Of a DNA stretch of 64,000 nt, positions 6,800 to 57,595 are shown piece after piece. Within the stretch, counting starts at the first letter, position 1. Each line of letters starts with the position of its first letter. The notes beneath the pieces are model-generated. The model was given only the letters and a program-made list of their open reading frames with translations. It did not search any database and was not told the origin of the DNA. Source of the DNA: Escherichia coli (GTDB taxonomy: Bacteria > Pseudomonadota > Gammaproteobacteria > Enterobacterales > Enterobacteriaceae). The stretch lies in the NCBI RefSeq assembly GCF_001677475.2, contig NZ_CP012497.1. One strand, written 5' to 3'. The translations under genes and the position numbers were made by a program.

Positions 6800-9700
6800 C
6801 TACACCTCGAGTGTCCCCTTACAAGACACAGAACGTCTGGCAAAAAGAGGTTCCACTCTGAAGCCACTGTCATGATAAAGCTCTCTGATGTTTGGCGCGC
6901 CACTGTTAGTAATGAGAACCTTTGCACCTCGACGATGAGCATCCGTCAACAGAGACACCAGGCGTTTTTGCTCTTCAAACTTAAAGTCATGACCGGAATA
7001 GTTCGTGAATCCCTCTGTATTTGGAAGCGGTTCATACGGCGGATCGCAAAAGATGACATCTCCTTCTCCGGCAGCTTCAATCACCGCTGCAAAATCACCG
7101 CATACAAACTCAGACCGCCCTTCCGCACCGAGGAAGGCTTCCATCTCCTGTAATGGGAAATACGGAGTTTTATACTTCCCGTAACCGACATTGAACTCAC
7201 CGGCCTGGTTGTAACGCGTCAATCCGTTAAAACAATGTCGGTTCAGGAACAAAAACGCCGCTGCGCGATGTAAATCATCATAGACTTGTTTGTTAAACGC
7301 ATTCCGTACTGCCAGGTATCCTTCCTGTGTGTTGTAGTCCTGGAAGAAACGATGTGCCAGAGTGATAAGTGAATGCGCCTCGCGTTGCAGAGTCTTGTAA
7401 AAGTTAATCAGGTCAGCATTCACATCATTTAGCAGATTTTCCTGGTATCCGGCATTCATGAAGACAGCTCCGCCACCAACGAAAGGTTCAATCAGGCGCT
7501 TCCCTTCTGGCAAATAGCGAAAGATTTGTTCCAGAACACCAAATTTTCCACCAGCCCATTTGAATATGGACCGTTCGAATTCTGCCGCTGGTTTAACTTT
7601 TCGCTCTTTTGTTTCACTTCCTTCTTTCTGCCGACATACGGCCTTAGTAATCCGATCGCCAATCCAGCGCATTACTGGTATTGCCATACTATTGCCGATC
7701 GCTTTGTAACGCGGTCCGTCAGCTGCAAGCATCGCGGCCTCTTCTTCGCTTAAATCTGGATAGTGATTGCGAAGATATGCCAGTTCATCTGAATTAACTT
7801 TTTTACGCTTTTCCGTCGGGATCAACGTATGCCCATCAGGAAAACCTTGCAGCCTTTCACATTCGACAGGGGTAAGACGGCGGACAGCTACTTCTGCGTT
7901 TCTTACTTCATAGCAAACAGCTGTTGGATTTTTAGCCATTAGAGATGGTGAAGTATTCTTAGTTGCAGCATGTTGTGTACCGCTCATACGCTCAGGAAAA
8001 GCCAATGTAACAAGATGCTCATGGCTTTCTTGCTCACGTGCCCGCAATGTACCATGCCCTTCTGACCAAAAACCTGCTCCTGTGCTGCTAAAAACGGCAA
8101 GGTCAGTGGCATCTTTAAAATCTCTTGCCTTTACTGTCGATGCGGTTTCATCGTCAATATATTCCCCAAATGCCGCCATCCTGAAAGCGTTTACGGCTTT
8201 CGTCGATTTCATACCGGGTGGCATGTCAGCGTGTAGGCATGGATTTAGGCTTTCGCCACTGATTGCAGCGCCATTTGCAATAATGGCGGAAGCGATTTCC
8301 TTCTTTTTTCGGCTCGGCGCAATATTCCGGCGCACGCCTTCGAACTCAAAAAGTACCGTTGCGGGATCGAGGTCTGTTCGAGCACTTGCGACAACAAACA
8401 CGCGTCGGCGTCGTTGTGCCACTCCGAAGTATTGGGCATCAAGGATTCTCCAGGCCACCTTTCGCTGCGGTCCATAAATACAACCACACTGCGGCCACTT
8501 TGGAGCATGGCAACCGGTTTTGCCATCCCACCGCCAGAACGCGTTACTTTTTCCTGATTCAGGTCGATCACCTGGTTCAAATGGCGCATCTTCTCCAGCC
8601 AATCCGGCAAGGAAACATCCGAAGGCGTTATCTGCCGATGACAGGACTCCTGGGACATTTTCCCAGACGATAACTGTCGGTTTGAGGAAGGACTCAGACC
8701 GTTTGTCGTCAATTGCATTTGCAAGCTCCACATACTTCAAAGTTAGCGCGCCGCGTTCATCATCAAGCCCACCACGTAAGCCCGCGATACTGAATGCCTG
8801 ACAGTTATGGACCACCGCACCATTGAGGATATAGGAATGATCACCTTCGACTTCTATGTTGTATACAGTATCTAGGCCTACCGATTTAAACTCTTTGACT
8901 GTTCGTAAAAGCATTCCATGAGCCAATCTTGATTTACGTGACAATTTCTGCGGGCAGATTGTTACCTGATAATAATTCCGTTGATTTACCACGCGATCCT
9001 CGATCACTTTTTTGGGCTCAACTTCAATAAAGCTGACCGAAGAAACATAACCACAAGTCTGTGACAACCCCGCAACGCCCCAAGCAAGCGCAGGACTAAC
9101 ACTATTAATTCTAAATCCCGCTTTACCACTTGGTGTCCCATCAGTATCAAGATAGCCTTGTAAAAACACATGACGCAATGGATGCGACATCACCCATGCA
9201 GGGATACGCTTAGCATGGCTTAACTCGCCAAAATGTTCATTAAGCCAATTGGCATAACACGTATCATTCAAGGTTACTTTGATGCTCCCTCGGATTTCGC
9301 TTGCCACGGAAAATATGTTTTCTGGTATGCGGCAATGAAACTTTCTCAATTTCTGGCAATTTATGCCAAAAACAACCGCCTTCTTAGATTTACCTCTCCA
9401 TCTCCTAATATATCCATCGCCAACATAAGCGCCCGCAAGATACATAGCCTGTTCTTCAGACAAGAACCGAGAACAAATATCTGGAGATGCAATATTGAAA
9501 TTAGTTAGAGCGCACCATTGATATCCCGGCATATCACATGCTGCTCGCCATTCCGGTTCAGACAACAACTCTCTCTTAAAATATGTGCCATTTTTCCGGG
9601 TGTTTTGGGCTTTCCACCGAACAGCCAGGAAGGGATGGTCATTGGTTGTTCTTATACCTAAAGGCTGCCCAACGGCATTAAGTAACCCCGTATTAGCTAT

Positions 9701-31681: not shown

Positions 31682-31803
31682 GATCCCACCTGTGTATTAA
31701 CCAGATACGATAGCCCTGAGGGCCAGGGTATTTAATCACAGATGATGCAAACTGACGATCGATACGATTGTATCGATCGTTATAAACTATACAAAATGAT
31801 GAC

Positions 31804-32393
31804 TTAATAACCGGGCGTTAACGCTCTTATATCGCTCAGTGTGGACAGCAGGGAAAGTTGCTCTTTCATCTCGCGCTGGCGTTCGTGGATTTTAAAGCCC
31901 TCCGCCACCATGGCCACCATCATGGCATCGTTCAGCGCAATAAGTTTCTCCCTGGTCAGTACGACGTTGTTATTATCCGCATCAGTCCAGAAAAATCCCT
32001 CCGGAAGCAGTCCGGCCTGCGCTGCTGCAACCACGGGGCAAGGCGTGACTGCGAGGTTTTTCCGCCATCAAAACGACGGCCATCAAACGTGAAAATAAAC
32101 TCAACGTTTTCCTGACTGTCGCGCCATGCCTCAATTTCCCGCCTTTTGGCATCCTTTGCCGCTGCAATAAGTTCCGGCGTGACGGTGAACGGGGCGATTT
32201 CGCCCCATTTCCCGCTTTGCAGCTCCTGCCAGATGTGCTGGCCTGTCGGGGCCATATCATCCTGTATGGCAGTATACAGGGCGAACTCCGTTTCACCTTC
32301 AAATAACACCTCGCAGTCAACCGCACCATTTTCAAGATAATGTGCGTTTCTGATACCTTTCACCGCTCTGATTTTCATGCCTGATTTCCTCAT
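31804..32393 (-). CDS. tail fibre assembly protein, frame broken at a T/A run near 32057-32061
   Basis: ORFs 31956-32393 and 31804-32034 are N- and C-terminal parts of one Tfa-like protein; an alternate frame reads KNLAVTPCPVVAAAQAGLLPEGFFW across the junction. Confidence 0.6.
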
Positions 32394-38260: not shown

Positions 38261-38793
38261 ACGGGCGGTGATGTATTCTCATTGTCGCCGTCCTTATGAA
38301 TGTGTTCGCTGAAAGATTTGCCGTTGATTCTGACATCTTCAGTAAACTCACAGGGACCGACGAATTTCATATTTCCTGCATTTATAGCCAGTAATTCGTC
38401 GGCGGTGAGATTTACCGTTTTCCCTGAAACGTTTAATTGTTCCCCTGTGATTTCAATAATTCCGCCTTTCCTTAACGTGATATGTGATTTGCCGTCCTGG
38501 TGATACAGCCGGACGTCGCCGGGGGACAGCCCTTTCGGGCGACATCGCTTGTCCTCCACCGCGATGGCAACCAGCCCGTCACGCCGCCCGCTAACGGCCA
38601 GCACTATGGCTTCAGAACCTTCCGGCGGCACGGATGTAAAACCGTAGTTCTGGAAGCGTTCCACGTCGTCGTCGGTGGCATCTGCCAGCGTCTGGATTTG
38701 CAGGTTCTGCCGCTCCAGACTGTCAGACACCATGCGGACAATGGCACGGTCAACCATCAGTCGCAGACGGCGGGCAATGGCGTTTAATCCCAT
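38257..38793 (-). CDS. baseplate spike protein, Mu gp45-like
   Basis: 178-aa ORF with gpV-like features, in the Mu baseplate cluster. Confidence 0.6.
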   Translation of the reverse strand: MGLNAIARRLRLMVDRAIVRMVSDSLERQNLQIQTLADATDDDVERFQNYGFTSVPPEGSEAIVLAVSGRRDGLVAIAVEDKRCRPKGLSPGDVRLYHQDGKSHITLRKGGIIEITGEQLNVSGKTVNLTADELLAINAGNMKFVGPCEFTEDVRINGKSFSEHIHKDGDNENTSPPV

Positions 38794-47386: not shown

Positions 47387-47464
47387 GACTCTGCCTTTTA
47401 AAAGGCAGTTAAAAGGGCATTCGCAGCGCCTTTTAACTGCGGGTTACAGATTACGGATGACGGG

Positions 47465-48377: not shown

Positions 48378-49334
48378 TTACTCCTGTTTCGGTTTAGCGG
48401 CGAGGAACTCTTCCCCGGTAATACCCATGCTGCGGCACATCGCCAGTTCGGTGTCGGTCAGTGTCTGCGCGGGTTTATCCTTGCCCTGGCTGGGCTTGTC
48501 GTTGTTCACCAGCGGCTGTGCGCCTCTGGTGTACTCCGCAAACTGTTTGCGGCCTTCTTCCGTGCGGCAGGTGGCAAGGAACATGTCACGGTTTGCCGGG
48601 GCCACTTTTCCGGCTTCGATGGCCGCATCCACAAGCGCTTCTGCTTCCTTCTCTTCAAGTTGCTGAAGGCGTTGTTCTGCGGTTTCGGCACGGTTCAGGG
48701 CCAGATTGTGGGTTTCCACCGGCACAAACTTCGTCAGATCAGGTGTCTGTGCGCGGTTCAGCGCCACCTGTTCGTTCTCCTGAAGTTGTTTAATGGCGGC
48801 CACGGTATCGTCCACCGTGGCAGATTCAGCCAGCCCAAGCAGGCCGGTGATTTGCACAGGTACTGTCATCAGGTTTTTCTCCGTATTCAGTGCAGGAAAA
48901 TCCAGGTTAGGTTTGTTGGTCAGCCCGACGCTGGACAGGCGCGTCACTACGCCTTCCGCGTCAAAGAAAAACGCCGGGCTGTAATAGCGGTAGCGGCGCT
49001 CGCTCAGCATCCAGCGGGCGGACTCGCTCCAGACAACACGCCCTTCAATGGTGCTGCTGTCCGTCACCCGCAGTTCTTCCACCCAGCCATACGCCGGAGC
49101 ATCTTCACCACGCGGGCCTTTAATTTCGGTGGCGTGTTCAATATCCACCGGAATTTTGATGCCGGACGAACGGGCAACCACCTCATGCGGATTGCGGTTA
49201 ATCCACGTCCGGCCATCGCGCCCGGTGAACTCACCCGCAGGGACAAGTTCGAGCCATTCCGGCAGTTGAGCAGGTGTCAGCTCAGGGATGGGTTCTGGCA
49301 GGGAAAAACACAGCGCCAGCAGTTCCGGTTGCAT
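48378..49334 (-). CDS. head protease/scaffold protein (Mu I-like)
   Basis: 318-aa ORF; N-terminal protease-like region, C-terminal coiled coil (LQQLEEKEAEALVDAAIEAG). Confidence 0.65.
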   Translation of the reverse strand: MQPELLALCFSLPEPIPELTPAQLPEWLELVPAGEFTGRDGRTWINRNPHEVVARSSGIKIPVDIEHATEIKGPRGEDAPAYGWVEELRVTDSSTIEGRVVWSESARWMLSERRYRYYSPAFFFDAEGVVTRLSSVGLTNKPNLDFPALNTEKNLMTVPVQITGLLGLAESATVDDTVAAIKQLQENEQVALNRAQTPDLTKFVPVETHNLALNRAETAEQRLQQLEEKEAEALVDAAIEAGKVAPANRDMFLATCRTEEGRKQFAEYTRGAQPLVNNDKPSQGKDKPAQTLTDTELAMCRSMGITGEEFLAAKPKQE

Positions 49335-49380
49335 GTCAGTCTCCGTCGTCTGGGGTTACCGACGGTCAGTATGCGGAAGG

Positions 49381-49410
49381 CAGAAAAAAAGCCGGATTTA
49401 CCGGCTTCAC
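49381..49410 (-). terminator. intrinsic terminator between F and I
   Basis: On the minus strand TGAAGCCGGTAAATCCGGC followed by T7; identical copy at 57113-57140. Confidence 0.55.
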
Positions 49411-49547
49411 TGAAAACGGGGAAATACCCCCTTCAAAACCCCTTCAAAAACGCCACAGCATCTTCAAAAACGTCAGAATGCACATTCACGCCATCAGAAT
49501 AAAAAACGCGTTTCTGATGCGTTTCAGGGGGATTTACGGCGGGAGGG

Positions 49548-50276
49548 TTACTCACTGTCAAAACGGGCCTGTTTTGTCGCCAGCTGGCGCGCCAGCTCCT
49601 GCTCACGGTTTATACCGGGATTGTAGTTCCAGCCCGGATCAATCCCTTCCGGCACCTCTTCCTCTTCGCCCGTACGTTTGTTCACCCAGCGGACAGTCCT
49701 GATTTCCGGCGCTTCGGTGTGAATGGTGCCCTGTGCCGCCAGTTGCGCATACTCACCACGGCTGACCTGACGGATGGTGCATTTGCAGCCCCAGCCGTTA
49801 GGGGCGAAATGCGTCTGCCAGAACGGGTGGTCTACAGGCAGACACAGACGCGCCCATTTCACATGCTCCGCCCGGTGCTCGCGGGATGGCCCCAGCTCAT
49901 AAATCAGATACGGCATGGCCCGCTTTGTCCGCTGAATGCGTTCCCACTGGCCCGCCGCGCGGGCGGTGCGCATGTTGGTGTCAAAAATCGTGCGGAGGCG
50001 GCGGTCGCTGCCCAGTTGCACGGTGCGCCTTTCGCCCGTCAGCGGATCATCCATCTCCTGTACGCCCCACCATCCGCGTTTTATCAGCAGCGGTTGCAGC
50101 ATCTCCCGGAACTCGCTGAACGTCTGCCCGCTTTGCAGGGCGTCTTCCACAAGGGATTTCACATCCGACAACAAATCCAGTTGCAGCATTTTTGCCACGG
50201 TGAAGCTGTTCCGGTGTTCTTCCCGCCACACATCCCGGTAATCAAAACCGGGCGCAGCTTCTTCGCCTTCAGCCAC
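49548..50276 (-). CDS. head morphogenesis protein (Mu F-like)
   Basis: 242-aa ORF directly downstream of the portal gene. Confidence 0.65.
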   Translation of the reverse strand: MAEGEEAAPGFDYRDVWREEHRNSFTVAKMLQLDLLSDVKSLVEDALQSGQTFSEFREMLQPLLIKRGWWGVQEMDDPLTGERRTVQLGSDRRLRTIFDTNMRTARAAGQWERIQRTKRAMPYLIYELGPSREHRAEHVKWARLCLPVDHPFWQTHFAPNGWGCKCTIRQVSRGEYAQLAAQGTIHTEAPEIRTVRWVNKRTGEEEEVPEGIDPGWNYNPGINREQELARQLATKQARFDSE

Positions 50277-50303
50277 GCCAGCGCCTCTTTCGGGATGAGG
50301 GTT

Positions 50304-51875
50304 TCACGCATGACCAGTGTCTCCCAGCGCACGGGCCTTAAAGCACACCTCCGCCAGTTGCAGGGCAAAGTCGTCCGCGTTCAGCGTTTCCTGAAGCTCA
50401 GGCAGGCGTTTCAGAAAGTCATCAAAACTGTCGCATTCCTGCGCCAGTGTCAGCACCGGGTTTGTGAACGCCTCGCCGGTTTTCTGCCAGTCACGCAGGG
50501 CATCATCCACCATCTGTGCCAGTTCGTCGGGGTGTTCCCGGTTCAGGGCGACGCGCTCGTGGTTCATCGCCATATCACCTGACATTCCGGCAGACACCGG
50601 ATGCAGAACATCAGCCCCTTCGTCCGGTTCCGCCAGGCCGAACCGATCCCGCAGCTCCGATTCCTGAACCCGCATCCCCCGGTCAATCAGTGGCACCAGA
50701 GCATCAGTCAGCGCCTTCAGATCTTCGGCTTCACTGATACGCAGAACAACACGGGGATAGTGCGCCTGTGGCCCGTAGTTGGCCTCGATGTAGGGACGCA
50801 CCAGATATTCATTCAGCGTGTTAGCCAGCTGTCGCGCGTCCCAGCGCACAATGTCCATGCGCACCTGATTGTGCACGTCCGCCTGTGAACGCGAACTGCC
50901 ATTATCTGTGGTCATGGTCTGCCCCAGTACGGCTTTACTGATTTGCGCATCGCACCATTCAGCCATTTCACGGAACAGCGCGCCGCCGTTATTCCGGCTG
51001 GCGGTTTCCTGCATCTCCAGTTGCATGGACTGCGGAATGGCACACCCGGCATCTGAGGCAATGGAGGCAATCGCATCAATCAGCACGCGGATTTGCTCCT
51101 CCGTGGCGTTGGGACCGTATTTCCCCACCGTAACCGGAATGCCGAATTTTTCCGCAAATGCCCACCAGTCACGCACGGTAAAGGATTTCAGCATATACAT
51201 CACAGCCACCAGACGGGCCAGACCGTTACGCAGCGGCAGACCGGATTTCAGACGCGGCTGGTGAACAATGAATTTTCCCGGTGTCAGCGGTACGCCATCC
51301 ACCGGTTCATCGTCAGTCAGCAGGCGGAACCGGCGCAGAGTGGGCTTTTCGGCTTTCAGAAAACGGGGATCAACCCACTCATAATCACGGGGCACCCAGT
51401 GGTTGTTGCGGGTGTTCCACAAAATTTCACAGACCGCCACGCCTTTTCCCAGCCCGTCGAGCAAATCAAACATCAGCTCGGGGATTTGCGGGGCTTCCAT
51501 CAGCGCACGTATGGCATCCGCCAGCTGTACGTCGGCATCGTCATCACTGGCAGCCACCACCACCGGTTCAATACCCGCCACCGTCAGCTTGCGGGTGCGC
51601 AGCACCGAGGCGTAATGCAAATCGCGTTCTTCCATCTCTTCGGCAAGGATAAAAAAATCACGCGTGATACCGTTGGCGGCATTGCGCAGAATGCCTGCCA
51701 GCCTGCCGGGATTCAGCCCGGAGGCGATGCTGATGCCCGGCGAGGCCGGACGCACGCCAGCCTGACGCGGACGGGCCTGTGCTTCGTTGAGCGCCTCTTT
51801 TTTCAGCGTGTCTTCCTCACCGGTTGCCGGGTTCAGCAGACGGCGTGCGGCCCCGGCCTGTTGTTTCTGGTTCAC
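50304..51875 (-). CDS. portal protein (Mu gp29/H-like)
   Basis: 523-aa ORF; GTG start overlaps the terminase stop (GTGA). Confidence 0.8.
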   Translation of the reverse strand: MNQKQQAGAARRLLNPATGEEDTLKKEALNEAQARPRQAGVRPASPGISIASGLNPGRLAGILRNAANGITRDFFILAEEMEERDLHYASVLRTRKLTVAGIEPVVVAASDDDADVQLADAIRALMEAPQIPELMFDLLDGLGKGVAVCEILWNTRNNHWVPRDYEWVDPRFLKAEKPTLRRFRLLTDDEPVDGVPLTPGKFIVHQPRLKSGLPLRNGLARLVAVMYMLKSFTVRDWWAFAEKFGIPVTVGKYGPNATEEQIRVLIDAIASIASDAGCAIPQSMQLEMQETASRNNGGALFREMAEWCDAQISKAVLGQTMTTDNGSSRSQADVHNQVRMDIVRWDARQLANTLNEYLVRPYIEANYGPQAHYPRVVLRISEAEDLKALTDALVPLIDRGMRVQESELRDRFGLAEPDEGADVLHPVSAGMSGDMAMNHERVALNREHPDELAQMVDDALRDWQKTGEAFTNPVLTLAQECDSFDDFLKRLPELQETLNADDFALQLAEVCFKARALGDTGHA

Positions 51876-53406
51876 AGTAAACCTCCCTCATTTTTCAGGC
51901 CGCGCGTCAGCTTCAGCTGGCGGCGCGCGTTGCGTTCTTCCGGTTTCGCCGGGCGGTTCAGACGGTGCAGTTCGTAACGGTGGCAGTCATCTTTACTGGC
52001 AAGGAAGCCCAGGAAAATGGCCACAGCGGCGTCGCCGTGACGTTTGTGACCGTCGCTGCCTCTGGTTCGTGAATCATCAATGCCGGGAACGCCACGCAGT
52101 AACTGAATGGCCCGAGGTCATTGATCACGTCTTCATGCTTCGGAAGGATCAGCTCATCATCTTCAAACGCCGCACGGAAACGGGGCATGTTTTCACGGTA
52201 AAACGCCACGGACAGCATCACCTGTTCCACCTCGTCGCCGTACCGCTCCGCCGCCTGTTCTGCCAGATACTGACCATTCCCCCGCGCATCCATTTTGATG
52301 CCGTCACGACGGGGCAGACGATCGCAAAGCCAGAACAGTACCTGCTCCTGCTGTTTAAACGGCACATTGGCAAGCTCAACCAGGAACGGCACCTCGCGGG
52401 TGGTGTCGTCGTTCACCGTCACCGGGGCCAGCACAGTCAGGTCACCCGAACGCGCAAAGTCTTCCCCCAGACAGTGGCGCAGGTTCTGTGGGAGTTTTTC
52501 CAGTTCAGGGCGCACCACCGTTTCCAGCCATTCCCGGATATCTGCCCGGCGCTGGCTTTCCGTCAGTGCGTTAAATTCCGGTGTGCCGGTAAAGCGCAAC
52601 ACTTTTCCGGTGCCACGGGCTGCACGTTCACGCATTGAGCGGGGGATATACGTGCCGCCGCCGTTTTTCGGGACGCAGTAATATTCCTCCAGGGCGTCTT
52701 CGCGGGTGGCGGTATTTCGCAGCAGGCCTTCTTTCCATTCCGCCTCGGCCTCCGGTGACCACTCCATGCCGCGTACCTGACAGATACGCCGGTACAGCCC
52801 GTCACTGCAGGCGTCATCCAGCGTGATGGTGTGAATACGGTAATCTTTTTTGCCTGCGCGGCTCTCCTGAATCAGCTGGTTAAACGGGTTGTCCACGCCG
52901 TCATGGGTGGAGATAAGGCGAACCTTACCGCCCCACGTGGTCAGTGGTGTGACCGCCTTGAGTACCTCATCCAGTTTTTCATGAAACGCCGCTTCGTCGA
53001 TGGTGACATTCCCCTGCATCCCGCGAATGTTGCCCGGATTGCTGGACAGCGCCTTGACCTTAAAACCGCTGGCGAAGTACACGACGAACGTCAGAATGTC
53101 CATGTCTTCGTCGGTGATCACTTCCTCGCGGATTTCTTCCGCTGCCGCATTAAACGCTTTCGCCCACATCGCTACGGCGTCGATAAATTCGCGGGCCATC
53201 TCCTTATTCGAACCGATATAAAAGTGATCGCGCCCGCCGTTTTCCTTCTTCAGTGATGCGGTCAGTGCTGCATCTGCCGCTTCCGCCCAGGTTAACCCGG
53301 TACGGCGTGATTTCTCGGCGATTTTCAGTTTTGAATCATCCGCCACCCAGCGTTTCTGATACGGCAGCAGAACATCGGATTCACTGAACGTGTTCATCTG
53401 TGTCAT
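51872..53406 (-). CDS. terminase large subunit (Mu gp28-like), frame broken near 52111-52113
   Basis: ATPase N-domain; the ORF-track C-terminus is out of frame, and the corrected frame gives ..GVPGIDDSRTRGSDGHKRHGDAAVAIF.. ending at a stop that overlaps the portal start. Confidence 0.8.
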
Positions 53407-54005
53407 GCGCTAATCCCCAGAATGTCTCGTTTGATGGTGTCAGCCGCACCGCCTGACAGACCACCCGTTCTGACCAGCTCTTCGGTTTTCTCAGCCATCT
53501 CCTGTGCAAACGCATCGCGGATCGCTTTCTCGCGTTTATGGCTGGTCATGGCTGCCGCTTCCAGACGCTGGGCAACCAGCGCCAGTTGCCCCAGCGCCTT
53601 TGGTGCTACAGGTTTGTCGTCTTCTGCCATCGACATGGACGTTTCAAAGGCCAGCGTTTTTACAAACTCCATCAGCAGCCTGCCGACGTCTGATGTTGGC
53701 GCGGAACCCAGCTTTGCCGCCCAGACTTCGGCCATTTCGCGGGAGGCGCGGATTTTGGCCCCGACTTTTTCCATGCGGCTGGCATAACGGTTTAAACCCG
53801 TCCGGCTTAACTGCATCTCTTCCGGCAGGTTGTGTTCGTCAATCAGGGCGTTGATGGCTTCGCGGATTTCTTCCTGCGTGTGCCGCTTTTCCCGCAGCAT
53901 CTGATGCAACTGCTCCCGGATGCTGTCCGGGAGTAAATCCACTTTGGAAAGACGGCCACGGGTGGGGCGTTGTTCATTTTCCATGTTTGCCCTCCTGTTG
54001 CTCAC
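53403..54005 (-). CDS. terminase small subunit (Mu gp27-like)
   Basis: 200-aa ORF immediately upstream of and overlapping the large-subunit start. Confidence 0.6.
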   Translation of the reverse strand: MSNRRANMENEQRPTRGRLSKVDLLPDSIREQLHQMLREKRHTQEEIREAINALIDEHNLPEEMQLSRTGLNRYASRMEKVGAKIRASREMAEVWAAKLGSAPTSDVGRLLMEFVKTLAFETSMSMAEDDKPVAPKALGQLALVAQRLEAAAMTSHKREKAIRDAFAQEMAEKTEELVRTGGLSGGAADTIKRDILGISA

Positions 54006-54121
54006 TACGCTGTAAACTTTCGTATGCAGATTTCAGCGCGCCGCTCTGGATTTCCCGCCATGTCAGGTTGTGCGCCAGACGGCGGAGTTCATCACGGGAC
54101 GCTTTACTTATCGGATTCTTT

Positions 54122-54421
54122 TTACGGTTCACGACGGCCCCCGTCTTCAGTTCCCGGTGTTTTCAGACCGGCGTATATTTCTTCGCGAACGGACCGGATA
54201 TCCTTACCCAGCAGCTTCCACAGCCGCGCACATGCCGGTGATGACCGCAGAAAGCGTTTCATGGGGCTGTCCGGTGCATCCGGGCTCCAGGGCTTTCCGG
54301 TCTGTTGTTCGTATGCACGGACAATGGCGTTTTGCTCAATATCTGCCAGCACAAGGCAGTACGCCAGTTGCCGCACGACGGCCCGTTCTCCGCGACTTAA
54401 CGGCTTCAGTTTTCGGGCCAT
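54122..54421 (-). CDS. hypothetical protein
   Basis: 99-aa ORF between the lysis region and terminase genes. Confidence 0.35.
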   Translation of the reverse strand: MARKLKPLSRGERAVVRQLAYCLVLADIEQNAIVRAYEQQTGKPWSPDAPDSPMKRFLRSSPACARLWKLLGKDIRSVREEIYAGLKTPGTEDGGRREP

Positions 54422-54423
54422 GC

Positions 54424-54717
54424 TCAGCCCCTCGCACGGGGTTTTTTAACGCCCGGAACGCTGGACAGGCCGTTTGCCACATCCTCGCCGCTGCCGGTGA
54501 TTTCAGCCACGTAACAGCCGCCCACATCAGACAGACGAACCAACCCCTGCTCGCGAAGCCATGCAAGCTGGGTGCGCACCACATCACGGGATACCTTATG
54601 ACCATAAGCCTGAAGGCAGGTCTGCAACACGGATTCATTCGCGCTGTCGCCACAGTCCAGCAGGGAACGCAGCAACACCAGACGACGGTCTTCAGTGAGG
54701 ATCTCTTTCATCGCCAT
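54424..54717 (-). CDS. hypothetical protein
   Basis: 97-aa ORF, tightly packed. Confidence 0.35.
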   Translation of the reverse strand: MAMKEILTEDRRLVLLRSLLDCGDSANESVLQTCLQAYGHKVSRDVVRTQLAWLREQGLVRLSDVGGCYVAEITGSGEDVANGLSSVPGVKKPRARG

Positions 54718-55022
54718 TAATTTTTTACCTTTAACTCGTTCTCTAATAACAAATCACTGATGCGGGAAACCTGGCGTATGGATGGCCCCAGTTCCCGGAT
54801 TTCGCCCCGCAGGTTGCTGATATCCAGTTGCAGGCGGTGAAATTCATTGCGGTCGGGGAGCTGATTCACCAGACCTTCCATCACCGACACACGGGAACGC
54901 AGCGAATCAAACTCTTCGCGTTTGACGTAAGTCTTTGCCAGAATCAGCTGAAGCAAATTTATCGCTGTCATCAACAGCGCCCATAAAATGGGCCAGTTGG
55001 CCCGGATCACTTCCCAGGACAT
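54717..55022 (-). CDS. membrane protein, lysis-associated candidate
   Basis: 101 aa; N-terminal TM (NWPILWALLMTAINLLQLILA) followed by a coiled coil. Confidence 0.4.
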   Translation of the reverse strand: MSWEVIRANWPILWALLMTAINLLQLILAKTYVKREEFDSLRSRVSVMEGLVNQLPDRNEFHRLQLDISNLRGEIRELGPSIRQVSRISDLLLENELKVKN

Positions 55023-55234
55023 GTCTTCCTCCTGCGCTCACGCATCTGCTGGCAGTCAATACAGGTCACCACATCCGGCAGCGCCGCAAGGCGCTGTGCC
55101 GGAATAACGTTCCCGCAGTCATTGCAGAAGCCCCGACTGTGGGGCGCTTCTTTTGTCCGCGTCTGCCAGGCTTTAACGACGCACTGACGCTCGTTCAGAA
55201 CCACTTCACTGATGCGGTCGATTTCATCGGTCAT
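55007..55234 (-). CDS. TraR/DksA-family C4 zinc-finger protein
   Basis: 75 aa with CNDCGNVIPAQRLAALPDVVTCIDCQ. Confidence 0.6.
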   Translation of the reverse strand: MTDEIDRISEVVLNERQCVVKAWQTRTKEAPHSRGFCNDCGNVIPAQRLAALPDVVTCIDCQQMRERRRKTCPGK

Positions 55235-56237
55235 TTCAGCCCCGCAGACATTTTGTGACGGCTTGATTTGCTGTAACGGGCAAAGCCGTCAAGGGTTCGC
55301 ACGCCGAGATAGCCCAGCGCAGGGGTAAGCAACATCAGCGTGATATCCCAGTCCGGTGTTGGCATATGCAGCGTGATACCTCTGGCACCGGCAACGGCTC
55401 CGGCAATCTGGCCGCAGGAGAGCAACAGCACATAGGCCAGACCGCTGTAACAGGAAAGGCGGGCCAGCAGCGGGCGCGTCTGGCGCACATAGCTGTCCGT
55501 GGCGTTGTCACCATTGCGGATGGTTTCCTGCTGTTCGTGGTGTGCGGCCTGCTGGTCAGCCAGCACCAGCTTCTGCCGCTCCACCTCCAGTTGTTGCAGC
55601 TGAATTTTCAGGGTTTCCAGTTGTATCTGTTGTTCCGGTGGTAACATCGCCATCTTCTGTTCCAGAACGCGCTGCTGTTCAGCCACCGGCAGGCTTTCCC
55701 GGACGCTTTCCACCATACCGGCCACCGAGTCAGCGGCGGCAGATGTACCGCCACCAAACCAGCGCCCGACGGAACGAATCAGCCCCGGCCCGGCTTTCAG
55801 CAGAACGGAGGCGATGCCTGAAAGGGTTAACGGATCCACGGGAAACCTCCATACAGATAACGCTGAAGACAGAGCAGAGCGCCGCAACCGCCACCACACA
55901 GCCAGAACACCGGGTGTGCCGGTGACATCATCATCAGCGTGCTGAAGACGCAGCAGAAATATCCCAGCGCCCAGACCACCCATGACCACACGATGATGTG
56001 GCGACCAAAAGCCCGGTAACGGACCTCAGGCAGCAGGCGAAATGGCACATTCCCGAGGCTTGCGCTGTATGAAAACAACACCACCCCGGCAAAGGACAAC
56101 AACATCAACACGAACGATCGCCAGCCACATAACATGCTGATGATGAACATACAGAGCGTCAGTCCGGCCAGCGGCCATGGGGTTCTCATCAGTCGGGAAC
56201 AAATCAGCCAGTCACACAGTTTTAAAATTTTGTTCAT
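55231..56237 (-). CDS. polytopic membrane protein (lysis cassette), probably one gene split by an indel near 55840-55845
   Basis: ATG at 56237; multi-TM N-part in ORF 55827-56462; the frame of ORF 55231-55989 continues with coiled coil and C-terminal TM segments. Confidence 0.35.
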
Positions 56238-56462
56238 AACCTTTTTCCACATTGAATTTTTCCCTGTACTTCTGGCACTGCCAGAAAATGTCCCGTGTAT
56301 CCACGGAGTTCCAGCCACGCATGTAGTAGCTGGCGTGTGTGCCGTCATGGCCGGTATAGTCCAGCGGTTTCGGGGCGGACCTCCGGCCATGCGGTGCAGA
56401 ACCTCCTGACGCAGGCGGTCGCGCCGCCCGGCTTTCAGAGAGGCATCCCAGCCTTTGCCCAT
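56212..56462 (-). CDS. small protein downstream of the endolysin, frame broken at a G-run (56372-56375)
   Basis: MGKGWDASLKAGRRDRLRQEVLHRMAGGPP continues in another frame as KPLDYTGHDGTHASYYMRGWNSVDTRDIFWQCQKYREKFNVEKGYEQNFKTV. Confidence 0.3.
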
Positions 56463-56463
56463 A

Positions 56464-57060
56464 TCACCCCCGCGTGGCGGACATGATGCCTGGAGGGGTA
56501 TCGATGATTTCCAGACAGGCGTCGGTCAGCTTTTCCATGCGGTTAAACCAGCCGTTCAGGTATTTGCCCTGGGCGGGTTTGGACTTGATGATGTCGGCAT
56601 AAAAGCGGGAACGACGGACAATGCAGCGGGCCAGCAGCCAGTCCGGGGTGGACAGGCTCACGGCCTTACGGGTACGGGGGCCGATGATGCCGTCAGCATC
56701 CACATCCGCGGCTTCCTGCAAAATCCTGATAGCTTTTTTAACGCCATGCTGAACCGCCGCATCGAACACAAACATCGCCACGCCATCAGGCCACTGGTCA
56801 CATCCGGCAGGCAGCCAGTAATCGCGCCAGTAAATCTGAGCAACCTGTTCGCGGGTTAAATCCCTGATGCGGGTATCCGGTTTGCCGTCGCCGTTGACAT
56901 CGGTTTTGCCGTCAGTCACACCGTCGCGGCGGTCAGAAATGCCGTATTTGGTTTCACCGCCACGGTCAGTGGGGTCATTGGCATAGACGCCTTCGATATC
57001 GGGACGCAGAATGAAATTCAGCGCATGTTCAAAGGCCGGGGAGAATTTTTGATTTTCCAT
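56464..57060 (-). CDS. lys: endolysin (GH108-like catalytic domain with peptidoglycan-binding C-terminus)
   Basis: 198 aa with GVYANDPTDRGGETKYGIS and ADGIIGPRTRKAV motifs. Confidence 0.8.
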   Translation of the reverse strand: MENQKFSPAFEHALNFILRPDIEGVYANDPTDRGGETKYGISDRRDGVTDGKTDVNGDGKPDTRIRDLTREQVAQIYWRDYWLPAGCDQWPDGVAMFVFDAAVQHGVKKAIRILQEAADVDADGIIGPRTRKAVSLSTPDWLLARCIVRRSRFYADIIKSKPAQGKYLNGWFNRMEKLTDACLEIIDTPPGIMSATRG

Positions 57061-57112
57061 AAAAGCACCTGTGAAGCAGATTTAAACGTGGTCTGCTTCA
57101 TGGTGCCGGAGG

Positions 57113-57140
57113 CATAAAAAAAGCCGGATTTACCGGCTTC
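57113..57140 (-). terminator. intrinsic terminator between mor and lys
   Basis: Same 25-nt sequence as at 49381-49410: hairpin GCCGGATTTACCGGC with a T-run on the minus strand. Confidence 0.55.
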
Positions 57141-57145
57141 ATTGA

Positions 57146-57595
57146 TTAAGGGCGTCGTGGTGGACGACGAACGGGGTGAGGCAGGTTCGGGGAGGGGTAA
57201 AACAAATCCGGCTGGTATTTATTGCGCTCCAGACGTCGCATCCGTTTGATGGCCTTGTAGACGGTTTTATACGTCACCCCGTAACGCTGAACCAGTTCAG
57301 GAATATTATGACCGTTAAAATCACGCCAGATACGCATATCCCGGACAAGATTCTCCAGAATATTCCCCCTCGGAACATAAACCTGCATCCCGCCGATATG
57401 GCGACAAATCGCCACAACCAGCTCAAGGGAATGAGCAGGGTCTGCGCCAATCCGGGCCAGCTCTTTACGCAGCAGTGCGTTCAGTTCAGAAAGTAACGCC
57501 GGATAAGCGGTGTTTTCCTGGTAATCATGAAGATATTCCAGAACGCTGTCGTCCCGAAGGTCTTCGAATAAATCCTGCTCTTTCATCTGTTTCAT
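57146..57595 (-). CDS. mor: middle operon regulator Mor (Mor/C family transcription activator)
   Basis: 149 aa, colinear with Mu Mor as recalled (DPAHSLELVVAICRHIGGMQVYVPRG, VTYKTVYKAIKRMRRL). Confidence 0.8.
   Translation of the reverse strand: MKQMKEQDLFEDLRDDSVLEYLHDYQENTAYPALLSELNALLRKELARIGADPAHSLELVVAICRHIGGMQVYVPRGNILENLVRDMRIWRDFNGHNIPELVQRYGVTYKTVYKAIKRMRRLERNKYQPDLFYPSPNLPHPVRRPPRRP

Follow-up and report, generated by a model that had tools for sequence, protein, structure and literature searches.

Gene context and the repeated block

The window (the whole 64-kb stretch of Escherichia coli DNA analyzed here) contains a Mu-like prophage with an early operon and two late units encoded on the minus strand (Table 1). 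A sequence-only reading of the same DNA had placed a repeated hairpin in the gap between mor and lys and in the 213-nt gap between F and I, and this placement agrees with the gene calls. Of 5,426 complete E. coli genomes, 61 carry a prophage of this group; outside E. coli, the element is found in genera that include Serratia, Klebsiella, Raoultella, Brenneria, and Kluyvera.

Table 1. Genes and sequence features at the two copies of the repeat; positions are those of the 64-kb window.
Feature	Position	Strand	Description
mor	57146..57595	-	PF08765, E 3.6e-30; only activator gene of the Mor/C family; closes the early operon
lys	56464..57060	-	PF05838 and PF09374; GH108 endolysin; opens first late unit (lys to F)
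F-like head morphogenesis gene	49548..50276	-	PF04233; PGAP annotation in relative L001; closes first late unit
I	48378..49334	-	PF10123, E 4e-44; protease/scaffold; opens second late unit (head and tail genes)
Hairpin and U-tract, lys-proximal	57116..57140	-	-12.6 kcal/mol, z -3.1; terminator scan; predicted terminator of early (mor) transcript
Hairpin and U7, I-proximal	49384..49408	-	-12.8 kcal/mol, z -3.3; terminator scan; predicted terminator of lys-F unit, embedded in the putative I promoter
Predicted Mor-binding element, lys-proximal	57128..57143	-	AATGA-AGCCGG-TAAAT (AATGAAGCCGGTAAAT); 13/16 vs Mu AGTAAAGCCGGTTAAT; -51 to -36 by alignment to Pm
Predicted Mor-binding element, I-proximal	49396..49411	-	AGTGA-AGCCGG-TAAAT (AGTGAAGCCGGTAAAT); 14/16 vs Mu AGTAAAGCCGGTTAAT
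Putative -10 CACCAT, lys promoter	57100..57105	-	same 10 nt from T7 as Mu TATCCT; predicted start about 57092
Putative -10 CATACT, I promoter	49368..49373	-	aligns with Mu PI CAAACT (by eye) and with CATACT/CACACT/GACACT of relatives
lys leader inverted repeat	57072..57100	-	UGAAGCAGA...UCUGCUUCA; spans predicted start; -16 kcal/mol, z -4.0
I leader inverted repeat	49343..49365	-	CCGUCG...CGACGG; 5' arm -5 to +1; 3' arm overlaps SD GGAG; -9.7 kcal/mol
Three phased repeats, T4-5GAAG	49425..49475	-	CTTCAAAA on the plus strand at 49431, 49442, and 49462; spacing 11 and 20 nt; probable gyrase-site right arm

The repeat AAAAAAAGCCGGATTTACCGGCTTCA has exactly two copies in the window (49384-49409 and 57116-57141). 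It had been described as 25 nt long; both copies are real, but the exact repeat is 26 nt and lies 2 to 3 nt further right than had been reported. No match to it was obtained in 100 dinucleotide shuffles of the sequence with up to 3 mismatches allowed. Similarity between the copies continues beyond the exact repeat over 49 nt with 86% identity (49372-49420 and 57104-57152). Exact searches, searches allowing 9 mismatches, searches for GCCGGN5CCGGC, and a profile HMM detected no further copies in the window. When the profile HMM was built from other loci, with the window excluded, precisely two sites were found with E values of about 1e-16 (57093-57144, E 3e-16; 49362-49412, E 8e-16), and the next minus-strand match had an E value of 0.15. 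An Rfam search across the prophage gave no match at E <= 1, megablast of a 10-kb region against sequenced phages gave two weak partial matches only, and short-query blastn of the element against phages returned nothing useful. A mobile element or recombination scar was rejected as the origin of the repeat, given that there are only two copies, that their orientation and gene context are constant, and that the chromosomal flank contains no copy.

A single activator of the Mor/C family

The activator encoded in the window shares 63% identity with Mu Mor and 32% with Mu C and, by sequence, is a Mor orthologue. The recognition helix of its HTH (VTYKTVYKAIKRMR) shows no variation among orthologues. 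In tblastn searches of the 64-kb window with Mu Mor or C, mor was the only match, and Mu C found the Mor orthologue alone in the window, in L001 (a complete relative), and in 58 related IMG/VR loci. Each of these genomes has one Mor/C-family gene; Mu has two. As had been noted from the sequence, the interval between mor and lys is free of a C gene, the mor stop codon being 4 nt from the hairpin. A search for a C homologue outside the window had been proposed; such a homologue is unlikely to exist, since L001 and the 58 loci each carry one Mor/C gene. In strain RM9088 a gene located between mor and the hairpin was considered as a C homologue and rejected, as its product is a signal-peptide protein. 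The earlier suggestion that late activation may differ from that in Mu is supported by the lack of a C gene; late activation is therefore expected to be unlike that of Mu.

Both copies have the layout of the Mu promoter Pm

On the minus strand, the core of the repeat is identical to the core of Mu Pm at 27 of 29 positions. The layout runs from a 16-bp putative Mor site to CCGGC-T7 and, after a further 10 nt, to a -10 hexamer (CACCAT or CATACT). Mu Pm reads CAGTAAAGCCGGTTAATCCGGCTTTTTTT-N10-TATCCT, and the window reads CAGTGAAGCCGGTAAATCCGGCTTTTTTT-N10-CATACT before I and CAATGAAGCC...-N10-CACCAT before lys. The Mor dyad of Mu Pm lies at -51 to -36 and comprises 16 bp, with 5-bp repeats and a G/C-rich 6-bp spacer (PMC4390567, PMC4287176); it was mapped onto AGTAAAGCCGGTTAAT with +1 fixed by -57G and -54A (PMC4390567). 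In the window, the left half-site (AGTGA or AATGA) shows weak symmetry with TAAAT. With start sites transferred from Mu by alignment, and element positions relative to +1 taken from the -10 spacing alone, the predicted leaders are 32 nt for lys (from about 57092 to the ATG at 57060) and 26 nt for I (from about 49360 to the ATG at 49334).

The -35 region, CCGGCT, matches TTGACA at 2 of 6 positions, and a consensus scan predicted no sigma-70-type promoter in either gap. Among relatives, A2 and T6 of the -10 hexamer are nearly invariant. The lys-proximal Mor element is identical across 49 unique sequences from relatives, in which the block GAAGCCGGT[A/T]AATCCGGCTTTTTT after mor has an information content of 2 bits per position and the flanks have about 0. 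Each gap contains the parts of a Pm-type promoter, a dyad and a -10 without a -35, in a phage that encodes a cognate Mor with a conserved HTH.

Neither com-mom nor a separate tail unit had a Pm-type site in the profile HMM search, and Mor may therefore not be the sole late control. The com-mom upstream region contains a Mu-like GATC cluster and no obvious C-type site.

Separately, a weak third Mor-type site was observed inside the baseplate gene V (38408-38427) and is kept in V genes down to 60% identity. This site encodes GK(T/S)VN, and the placement of a -10 is inconsistent among V genes.

The triplet upstream of I resembles the right arm of the Mu gyrase site

Three direct repeats had been reported in the F-I gap and are present there (49431-49469). 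The motif CTTCAAAA occurs three times in 64 kb, all within this segment; three copies equal the chance expectation for the window, and the clustering in 39 nt is the non-random part. The late promoter had been expected in this region, but the 49-nt block is the better candidate, placing the triplet at about -71 to -109. The triplet aligns with Mu TTTTAAAAC, TTTTTAAAC, and TATTTAAC, which lie immediately to the right of the gyrase cut site annotated between G and I in Mu. Identity to Mu across the triplet region is 62%, a hand count over 50 nt that is bridged by intermediate sequences. The motif is present 5' of I in most related loci that reach this region. The prophage is estimated at roughly 35 kb (the size of L001 minus its IS insertion), and the distance from its mom end to the F-I gap is about 18.6 kb. 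In the Mu gyrase site, the right arm with its bend-inducing repeats is the essential part (review, PMC10052514). The window likewise has a central site in the gap 5' of I and, as a right arm, phased repeats homologous to those of Mu. The triplet is thus probably the right arm of a central strong gyrase site that is separate from the promoter.

Alternatively, the triplet could serve the I promoter from upstream (as a UP-like element, a further Mor site, or the site of an IHF bend) or could have no function. It is rich in A/T tracts and helically phased, the counterpart promoter in Mu uses the alpha C-terminal domain, and the adjacent GAAGGGGGTATTTCC weakly resembles a Mor site. However, -71 to -109 is beyond the alpha-CTD footprint in Mu (-61 to -59), and the GGGGGTATTTCCCC dyad is variable within the lineage. 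Moreover, E. coli SE11 has a Mu-type prophage whose G-I gap keeps a 46-nt block containing the triplet at 95.7% identity, although the I promoter there is C-type and itself differs. Together with the alignment beside the Mu cut site, these observations make a promoter role or a lack of function rather unlikely. The resemblance of the probable gyrase site to that of Mu extends to its central position just 5' of I, three phased T-tract repeats on the right side, and sequence continuity via intermediate Mu-like prophages. It differs in the repeats (TTTTGAAG vs TTTTAAAC in Mu) and in lying between F and I, G being elsewhere.

The hairpin as a predicted terminator

As RNA, each copy reads GAAGCCGG-UAAAU-CCGGCUUU followed by U4, with a U7 tract in all. 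The 8-bp stem and 5-nt loop have an MFE of -12.6 to -12.8 kcal/mol (z about -3), and the G+C-rich stem-loop lies directly before the U-tract in the same orientation as the upstream gene, as in an intrinsic terminator. The GC hairpin and T-run had been recognized on the coding (minus) strand, and both the folding energies and U7 are consistent with a terminator. All 56 informative loci retain the complete hairpin after mor, with 7 or more T. The Mu record AF083977 has a TransTermHP terminator (9179-9200) inside the Pm feature (9163-9233).

The hairpin had been interpreted solely as a terminator before each unit, an interpretation not supported in view of the match of the 49-nt block itself to the Mor-dependent Pm of Mu. 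If the copies were plain identical intrinsic terminators, with late promoters elsewhere (e.g., within the 3' end of mor or around the triplet), the canonical hairpin and U7 at the ends of mor and F would be explained. The stem of such a terminator would be free to covary, yet after mor neither variation nor covariation was seen in 49 unique sequences, across Mor proteins that diverge from 100% to 61% identity. Upstream of I, the terminator traits are eroded, but the 5' half and the spacing to the -10 are retained. The 3' arm or the T-run is disrupted in roughly half of some 50 I-proximal sites (dG -1.6 to -9); these keep the left part with GGT[A/T]AAT, as well as GAAAGCGGTTAATCC and its spacing to GACACT/CACACT. 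Stem variation at I includes two compensatory variants (AAACCGG/CCGGTTT and GAAGGCGG/CCGCCTT) alongside many broken stems. In addition, a promoter further upstream would run directly into the terminator, none of the sigma-70 type was predicted nearby, and the block matches the mapped Mor site of Mu. Plain terminators are thus very improbable as a full account.

An attenuator, with a constitutive or early promoter upstream of each hairpin and a phage factor that permits read-through to lys and I, would fit the 50 to 56 nt between T-run and start codon and the second hairpin that follows each copy, but it is the least credible reading, as neither an antiterminator-like gene nor an upstream promoter was found, Mu Pm accounts for the layout base by base with activation there by recruitment, and the conserved downstream -10 (A2, T6) would have no role.

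Bases immediately 3' of the dyad are important in Mu Pm (PMC2582627), and the 3' arm and T7 after mor could be invariant because the promoter, and not termination, requires them. It is also not obvious why a terminator would be needed between two units if both are Mor dependent.

Inverted repeats in the leaders

Both leaders contain an inverted repeat. That of lys, extended by CACC/GGUG, reaches the lys Shine-Dalgarno sequence (57066-57070). When leaders were folded one sequence at a time, the 5' arm began at -9 to -5 in 27 of 27 lys leaders, with differing sequences. The computed accessibility of the lys Shine-Dalgarno sequence was 0.28 in read-through RNA vs 0.56 in promoter-initiated RNA. 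Across 14 Mu-like I leaders, compensatory changes were found in three pairs of the I repeat.

We tentatively suggest a three-layer insulator-promoter, comprising a terminator, an activator site made from the 5' arm of the terminator, and a leader repeat with its 5' arm 5' of the start. RNA leaking past the terminator would adopt a fold in which the ribosome-binding region of lys or I is masked, while Mor-initiated RNA, without the leader 5' arm, would be translated, an IS10-like "fold-back inhibition" acting on late genes. Davis, Simons, and Kleckner reportedly described such fold-back inhibition in 1985, for transposase translation from read-through transcripts of IS10/Tn10. The leaders are like IS10 in that the 5' arm of the inverted repeat lies upstream of its own start, so that only externally initiated RNA would hide the ribosome-binding region. 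They differ in that the case here is computational and concerns a phage late operon behind a terminator, and in many cases the 3' arm lies next to the Shine-Dalgarno sequence instead of covering it. If true, the three-layer design would be conserved in enterobacterial Mu-like prophages that dispensed with C.

A model for late gene activation

The sequence features, the conservation pattern, and the absence of C described above were observed directly. On this basis, it is likely that both copies are Mor-dependent Pm-type promoters that double as terminators of the preceding unit, with no C tier and with the triplet as a separate gyrase-site right arm. At the RNA level, polymerase arriving from upstream would meet an intrinsic terminator, such that the early transcript would end after mor and the lys-to-F transcript before I. 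The Mu early transcript presumably ends at its Pm-overlapping hairpin. At the DNA level, the Mor site of 16 bp (A[A/G]TGA-AGCCGG-TAAAT), centered near -43.5, would be made up of the 5' arm and loop of the hairpin; the 3' arm and T7 would occupy the missing -35 and spacer, with the -10 hexamer 10 nt further. The early transcript would supply Mor, and Mor at both sites would recruit sigma-70 RNA polymerase to start at about 57092 (lys through F) and about 49360 (I and the head and tail genes). The predicted cascade has two steps, from early transcription through Mor to late transcription, vs that of Mu, in which C is interposed between Mor and the late genes. We infer Mor binding, the start sites, termination, and gyrase action from sequence comparison.

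DISCUSSION

The module and the predicted two-tier cascade without C are a variation on the known design of Mu Pm, a Mor-dependent sigma-70 promoter lacking a -35. With Mu Pm the module shares the 16-bp Mor element, CCGGC-T7, the 10-nt gap to the -10, the position after mor, and an orthologous activator. However, Pm in Mu drives a short middle operon that ends in C, whereas in the window the copy after mor is predicted to act directly on lys and the head genes, and the other copy stands before I, where Mu has a C-type promoter. The loop is TAAAT here vs TTAAT in Mu, and the -10 hexamers are unlike.

The two copies also occupy the same genomic places as Mu Plys and PI (before lys and before I), each after a terminator-like hairpin, and the -10 region of the putative I promoter, CCTTCCGCATACTGAC, is homologous to that of Mu PI, CCTCCCGCAAACTGAC. 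Plys and PI are C dependent in Mu, whereas the window has no C gene. The consensus of the C site is TTAT-N5-6-ATAA (PMC12867686). By our own reading, the four Mu late promoters share a ATAACCCC-type block; in the window a Mor-type site replaces it, and a C-type late promoter as in Mu is thus not seen.

The I-proximal sites, some of which retain the 3' arm and T-run and some of which do not, represent a natural mutational series for Mor binding vs termination. For the annotation of transposable prophages, the module also offers a precise signature of late-operon starts and, with the triplet, of the central gyrase site. For this widespread group of Mu-like prophages, the late genes would be wired through one activator and two copies of a 50-nt module that terminates one transcript and starts the next. 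The extra tier of Mu, C, then looks like an elaboration and not the rule.

RESULTS

The repeat that had been read from sequence alone between mor and lys and between F and I was confirmed as a 26-nt string with exactly two occurrences in the window (49384-49409 and 57116-57141) and zero matches in shuffled sequences; similarity between the copies reaches 49 nt (86% identity). Both lie in the Mu-like prophage on the minus strand, which runs from ∼30.8 kb to past the window end. The lys-proximal copy is located 4 nt past the mor stop and 56 nt ahead of the lys ATG, and the I-proximal copy is within the 213-nt F-I gap, 50 nt ahead of the I ATG. As RNA, each copy folded (−12.6 to −12.8 kcal/mol, z about −3) into an 8-bp stem enclosing a 5-nt loop, with U's after it, and the hairpin block has the sequence-level features of an intrinsic terminator. 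The 10-kb region was found in 61 of 5,426 complete E. coli genomes. Species-representative genomes of Pluralibacter, Serratia, Brenneria, Raoultella, Klebsiella, Trabulsiella, and Kluyvera also carry the exact 23-nt core, some of them with two copies on a single contig. Two Bacteroidota genomes outside the expected host range, L066 (Adhaeribacter) and L071 (a Flavobacteriia MAG), each have a single copy of this core (GAAGCCGGTWAATCCGGCTTTTT), perhaps by chance or perhaps in a related element.

The block was then compared with Pm, the middle promoter of Mu that is activated by Mor. In the Mu record AF083977, Pm is annotated at 9163-9233, with a predicted terminator (9179-9200) within it. Mu Pm (CAGTAAAGCCGGTTAATCCGGCTTTTTTT-ACGTCCTCAA-TATCCT) aligned without gaps to both window copies, which read CAGTGAAGCCGGTAAATCCGGCTTTTTTT-CTGCCTTCCG-CATACT and CAATGAAGCCGGTAAATCCGGCTTTTTTT-ATGCCTCCGG-CACCAT. 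The Mor site is a 16-bp dyad at −51 to −36, with 5-bp inverted repeats flanking a G/C-rich hexamer; the promoter itself includes a −10 element but lacks a −35 element (PMC4390567, PMC4287176). With the Mu +1 set at position 1225 of the Mu sequence (L002) from the published −57G and −54A, the Mu dyad is AGTAA-AGCCGG-TTAAT, which corresponds to the 5′ arm plus loop of the hairpin. No sigma-70 consensus promoter was predicted in the mor-lys or F-I gap. At the sequence level, the hairpin block has every feature of a Pm-type promoter and does not qualify as a promoter dependent on C, the late activator of Mu.

Prophage genes and predicted promoter elements in window coordinates
Feature	Position	Strand	Basis
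Prophage genes, including mor, GH108 lys, gp27-like gene, terminase, portal, F, I, T		minus	
Predicted Mor site, lys-proximal copy	57143-57128	minus	alignment to Mu
Predicted Mor site, I-proximal copy	49411-49396	minus	alignment to Mu
−10 hexamer, lys-proximal copy	57105-57100	minus	alignment to Mu
−10 hexamer, I-proximal copy	49373-49368	minus	alignment to Mu
Predicted start, lys-proximal copy	about 57092	minus	alignment to Mu
Predicted start, I-proximal copy	about 49360	minus	alignment to Mu
Leader inverted repeats	57072-57100 and 49343-49365	minus	

Terminator and binding-site functions were weighed by comparing related loci. After mor, the hairpin plus T-run was present in all 56 loci with downstream sequence (Mor identity, 61 to 100%), either directly 3′ of mor or past one inserted gene. 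In 49 unique post-mor sequences, GAAGCCGGT[A/T]AATCCGGCTTTTTT was invariant, the flanks carried nearly no information, and the hexamer 10 nt past T7 kept A at position 2 and T at position 6. A stem selected for pairing alone should covary, but the post-mor stem showed no covariation. Upstream of I, a perfect copy was kept at about 22 of ∼50 sites; the remaining sites kept the left part plus GGT[A/T]AAT at an unchanged distance to GACACT, CACACT, or CATACT, whereas the 3′ arm was broken and the T-run was absent. Thus, what both places conserve is the Mor site together with the −10 hexamer. Only at the early/late boundary is the full terminator kept universally, an argument from conservation for selected termination there. 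A profile hidden Markov model built without the window matched exactly the two window sites (each with an E value of about 1e-16).

The F-I gap also contains three direct repeats of CTTCAAAA (at 49431, 49442, and 49462), found nowhere else in the window. On the coding strand, T4-5GAAG is repeated three times in this triplet at spacings of 20 and 11 nt, close to helical phasing. The sequence-only reading had expected a late promoter in this gap. The triplet aligned with Mu TTTTAAAAC, TTTTTAAAC, and TATTTAAC, which are found just to the right of the gyrase cut site annotated in the Mu G-I gap. In a Mu-type prophage of E. coli SE11 that has a C-type I promoter, the G-I gap contains a 46-nt block with 95.7% identity. 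An intermediate form, AAACGCGCCACGGCGTTTTTGAACGGGGTTTGAAC, was at the equivalent place in most related loci reaching this region. In the Mu strong gyrase site, the right arm is essential and holds bend-inducing repeats, and the sole substitute for that site is the site of the related Sakai prophage (reviewed in PMC10052514). Taken together, these comparisons lead us to read the triplet, which spans about −71 to −109 relative to the I promoter, as a putative part of a central gyrase site rather than as the promoter. Just upstream of it on the coding strand, at the start of the gap (49478-49505, minus strand), is an 8-bp inverted repeat without a U-tract (CATCAGAA...TTCTGATG). Its conservation is confined to the E. 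coli lineage, and its place is approximately that expected, by analogy with Mu, for the gyrase cleavage core.

Mor, encoded upstream, is a 149-residue protein that shares 63% identity with Mu Mor and 32% with Mu C; its recognition helix is invariant across orthologues and differs from that of C. The sequence-only reading had noted no C gene between mor and lys and had proposed a search for one beyond the window. The first point stood, and the search was negative: with the Mor and C proteins of Mu as queries, tblastn gave one family member in the whole window, one in the complete prophage of strain RM9088, and one in each of 58 IMG/VR loci (10 kb on each side of mor). In RM9088, the product of an extra gene between mor and the hairpin is a signal-peptide protein rather than a regulator. 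Many relatives (RM9088 prophage L001, 27654-28151; L017 to L061) carry one small secreted- or membrane-protein gene there, with homology breaking off right where the Mor site begins on its 5′ side; this junction is a hotspot for accessory-gene insertion inside the early transcript. The window Mor (C terminus at 57146-57165) ends in ...KYQPDLFYPSPNLPHPVRRPPRRP, and its proline/arginine tail is specific to this sub-lineage; the RM9088 protein ends in QMQLFKDES. A C-terminal beta-clamp-binding consensus has been reported for MuC and its family (PMC12867686). The QPDLF of the window protein matches it, while Mu Mor has QPSLL and does not.

An inverted repeat follows each of the two promoters, its 5′ arm starting at −9 to −5 in 27 of 27 leaders examined. 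Such a start-straddling repeat was seen at every Pm-type and I promoter, including those of related loci L005 to L062 and Mu (L002, 1218-1251). The 5′ arm runs to about +1, whereas the 3′ arm either adjoins or overlaps the Shine-Dalgarno sequence or start codon; arm sequences differ among lineages and covary. RNA started at the promoter would lack the 5′ arm, so the hairpin could form in read-through RNA only. In folding of 45 unique leaders, whose relatedness to one another makes p-values only indicative, accessibility of the Shine-Dalgarno window was 0.28 in read-through RNA versus 0.56 in promoter-initiated RNA and 0.44 with positions −13 to −1 shuffled. We hypothesize that leaky read-through transcripts of the first late gene would be masked by fold-back in an IS10-like manner.

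Three other sites in the prophage were recorded. Inside baseplate gene V (38408-38427, minus strand), CAGGGAAAACGGTAAATCT resembles the degenerate Mor sites that relatives have upstream of I, and TATAAA follows 23 nt downstream. Conservation extends to V genes of 60% protein identity, synonymous positions included; the site encodes GK(T/S)VN, however, and −10 placement is inconsistent. By analogy, it may be an internal tail promoter like PP of Mu. Upstream of com-mom (31700-31810, minus strand), a GATC-rich block (ACGATCGATACAATCGTATCGATCGT), followed by hairpin CCCTGGCCCTCAGGG, resembles the Dam/OxyR control region of Mu mom. Neither a Pm-type nor a clear C-type activator site was found in this region. 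In the 78-nt gap that separates T, the major head (capsid) gene, from the next gene, a stem-loop (AGTTAAAAGGGC...GCCCTTTTAACT) and then a palindrome (GCCTTTTAAAAGGC) are present (47395-47445, minus strand) and may be an attenuator or RNA-stability element.

DISCUSSION

In the cascade suggested by these comparisons, the early transcript would stop at the hairpin past mor, and Mor (bound as a dimer according to older work and as a tetramer according to a 2025 preprint) would occupy both modules and recruit RNA polymerase. The lys-to-F transcript would stop at the second hairpin, and the I promoter would restart transcription into the head and tail genes. Single Mor-family regulators have already been annotated in other transposable phages, and in KS10 the mor gene is directly ahead of the protease gene. 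The new features here are the cis-wiring, the duplication of the module, and the way in which the post-mor and I-proximal positions contrast. We propose that in this prophage the Pm logic of Mu is used directly for the late operons, without C.
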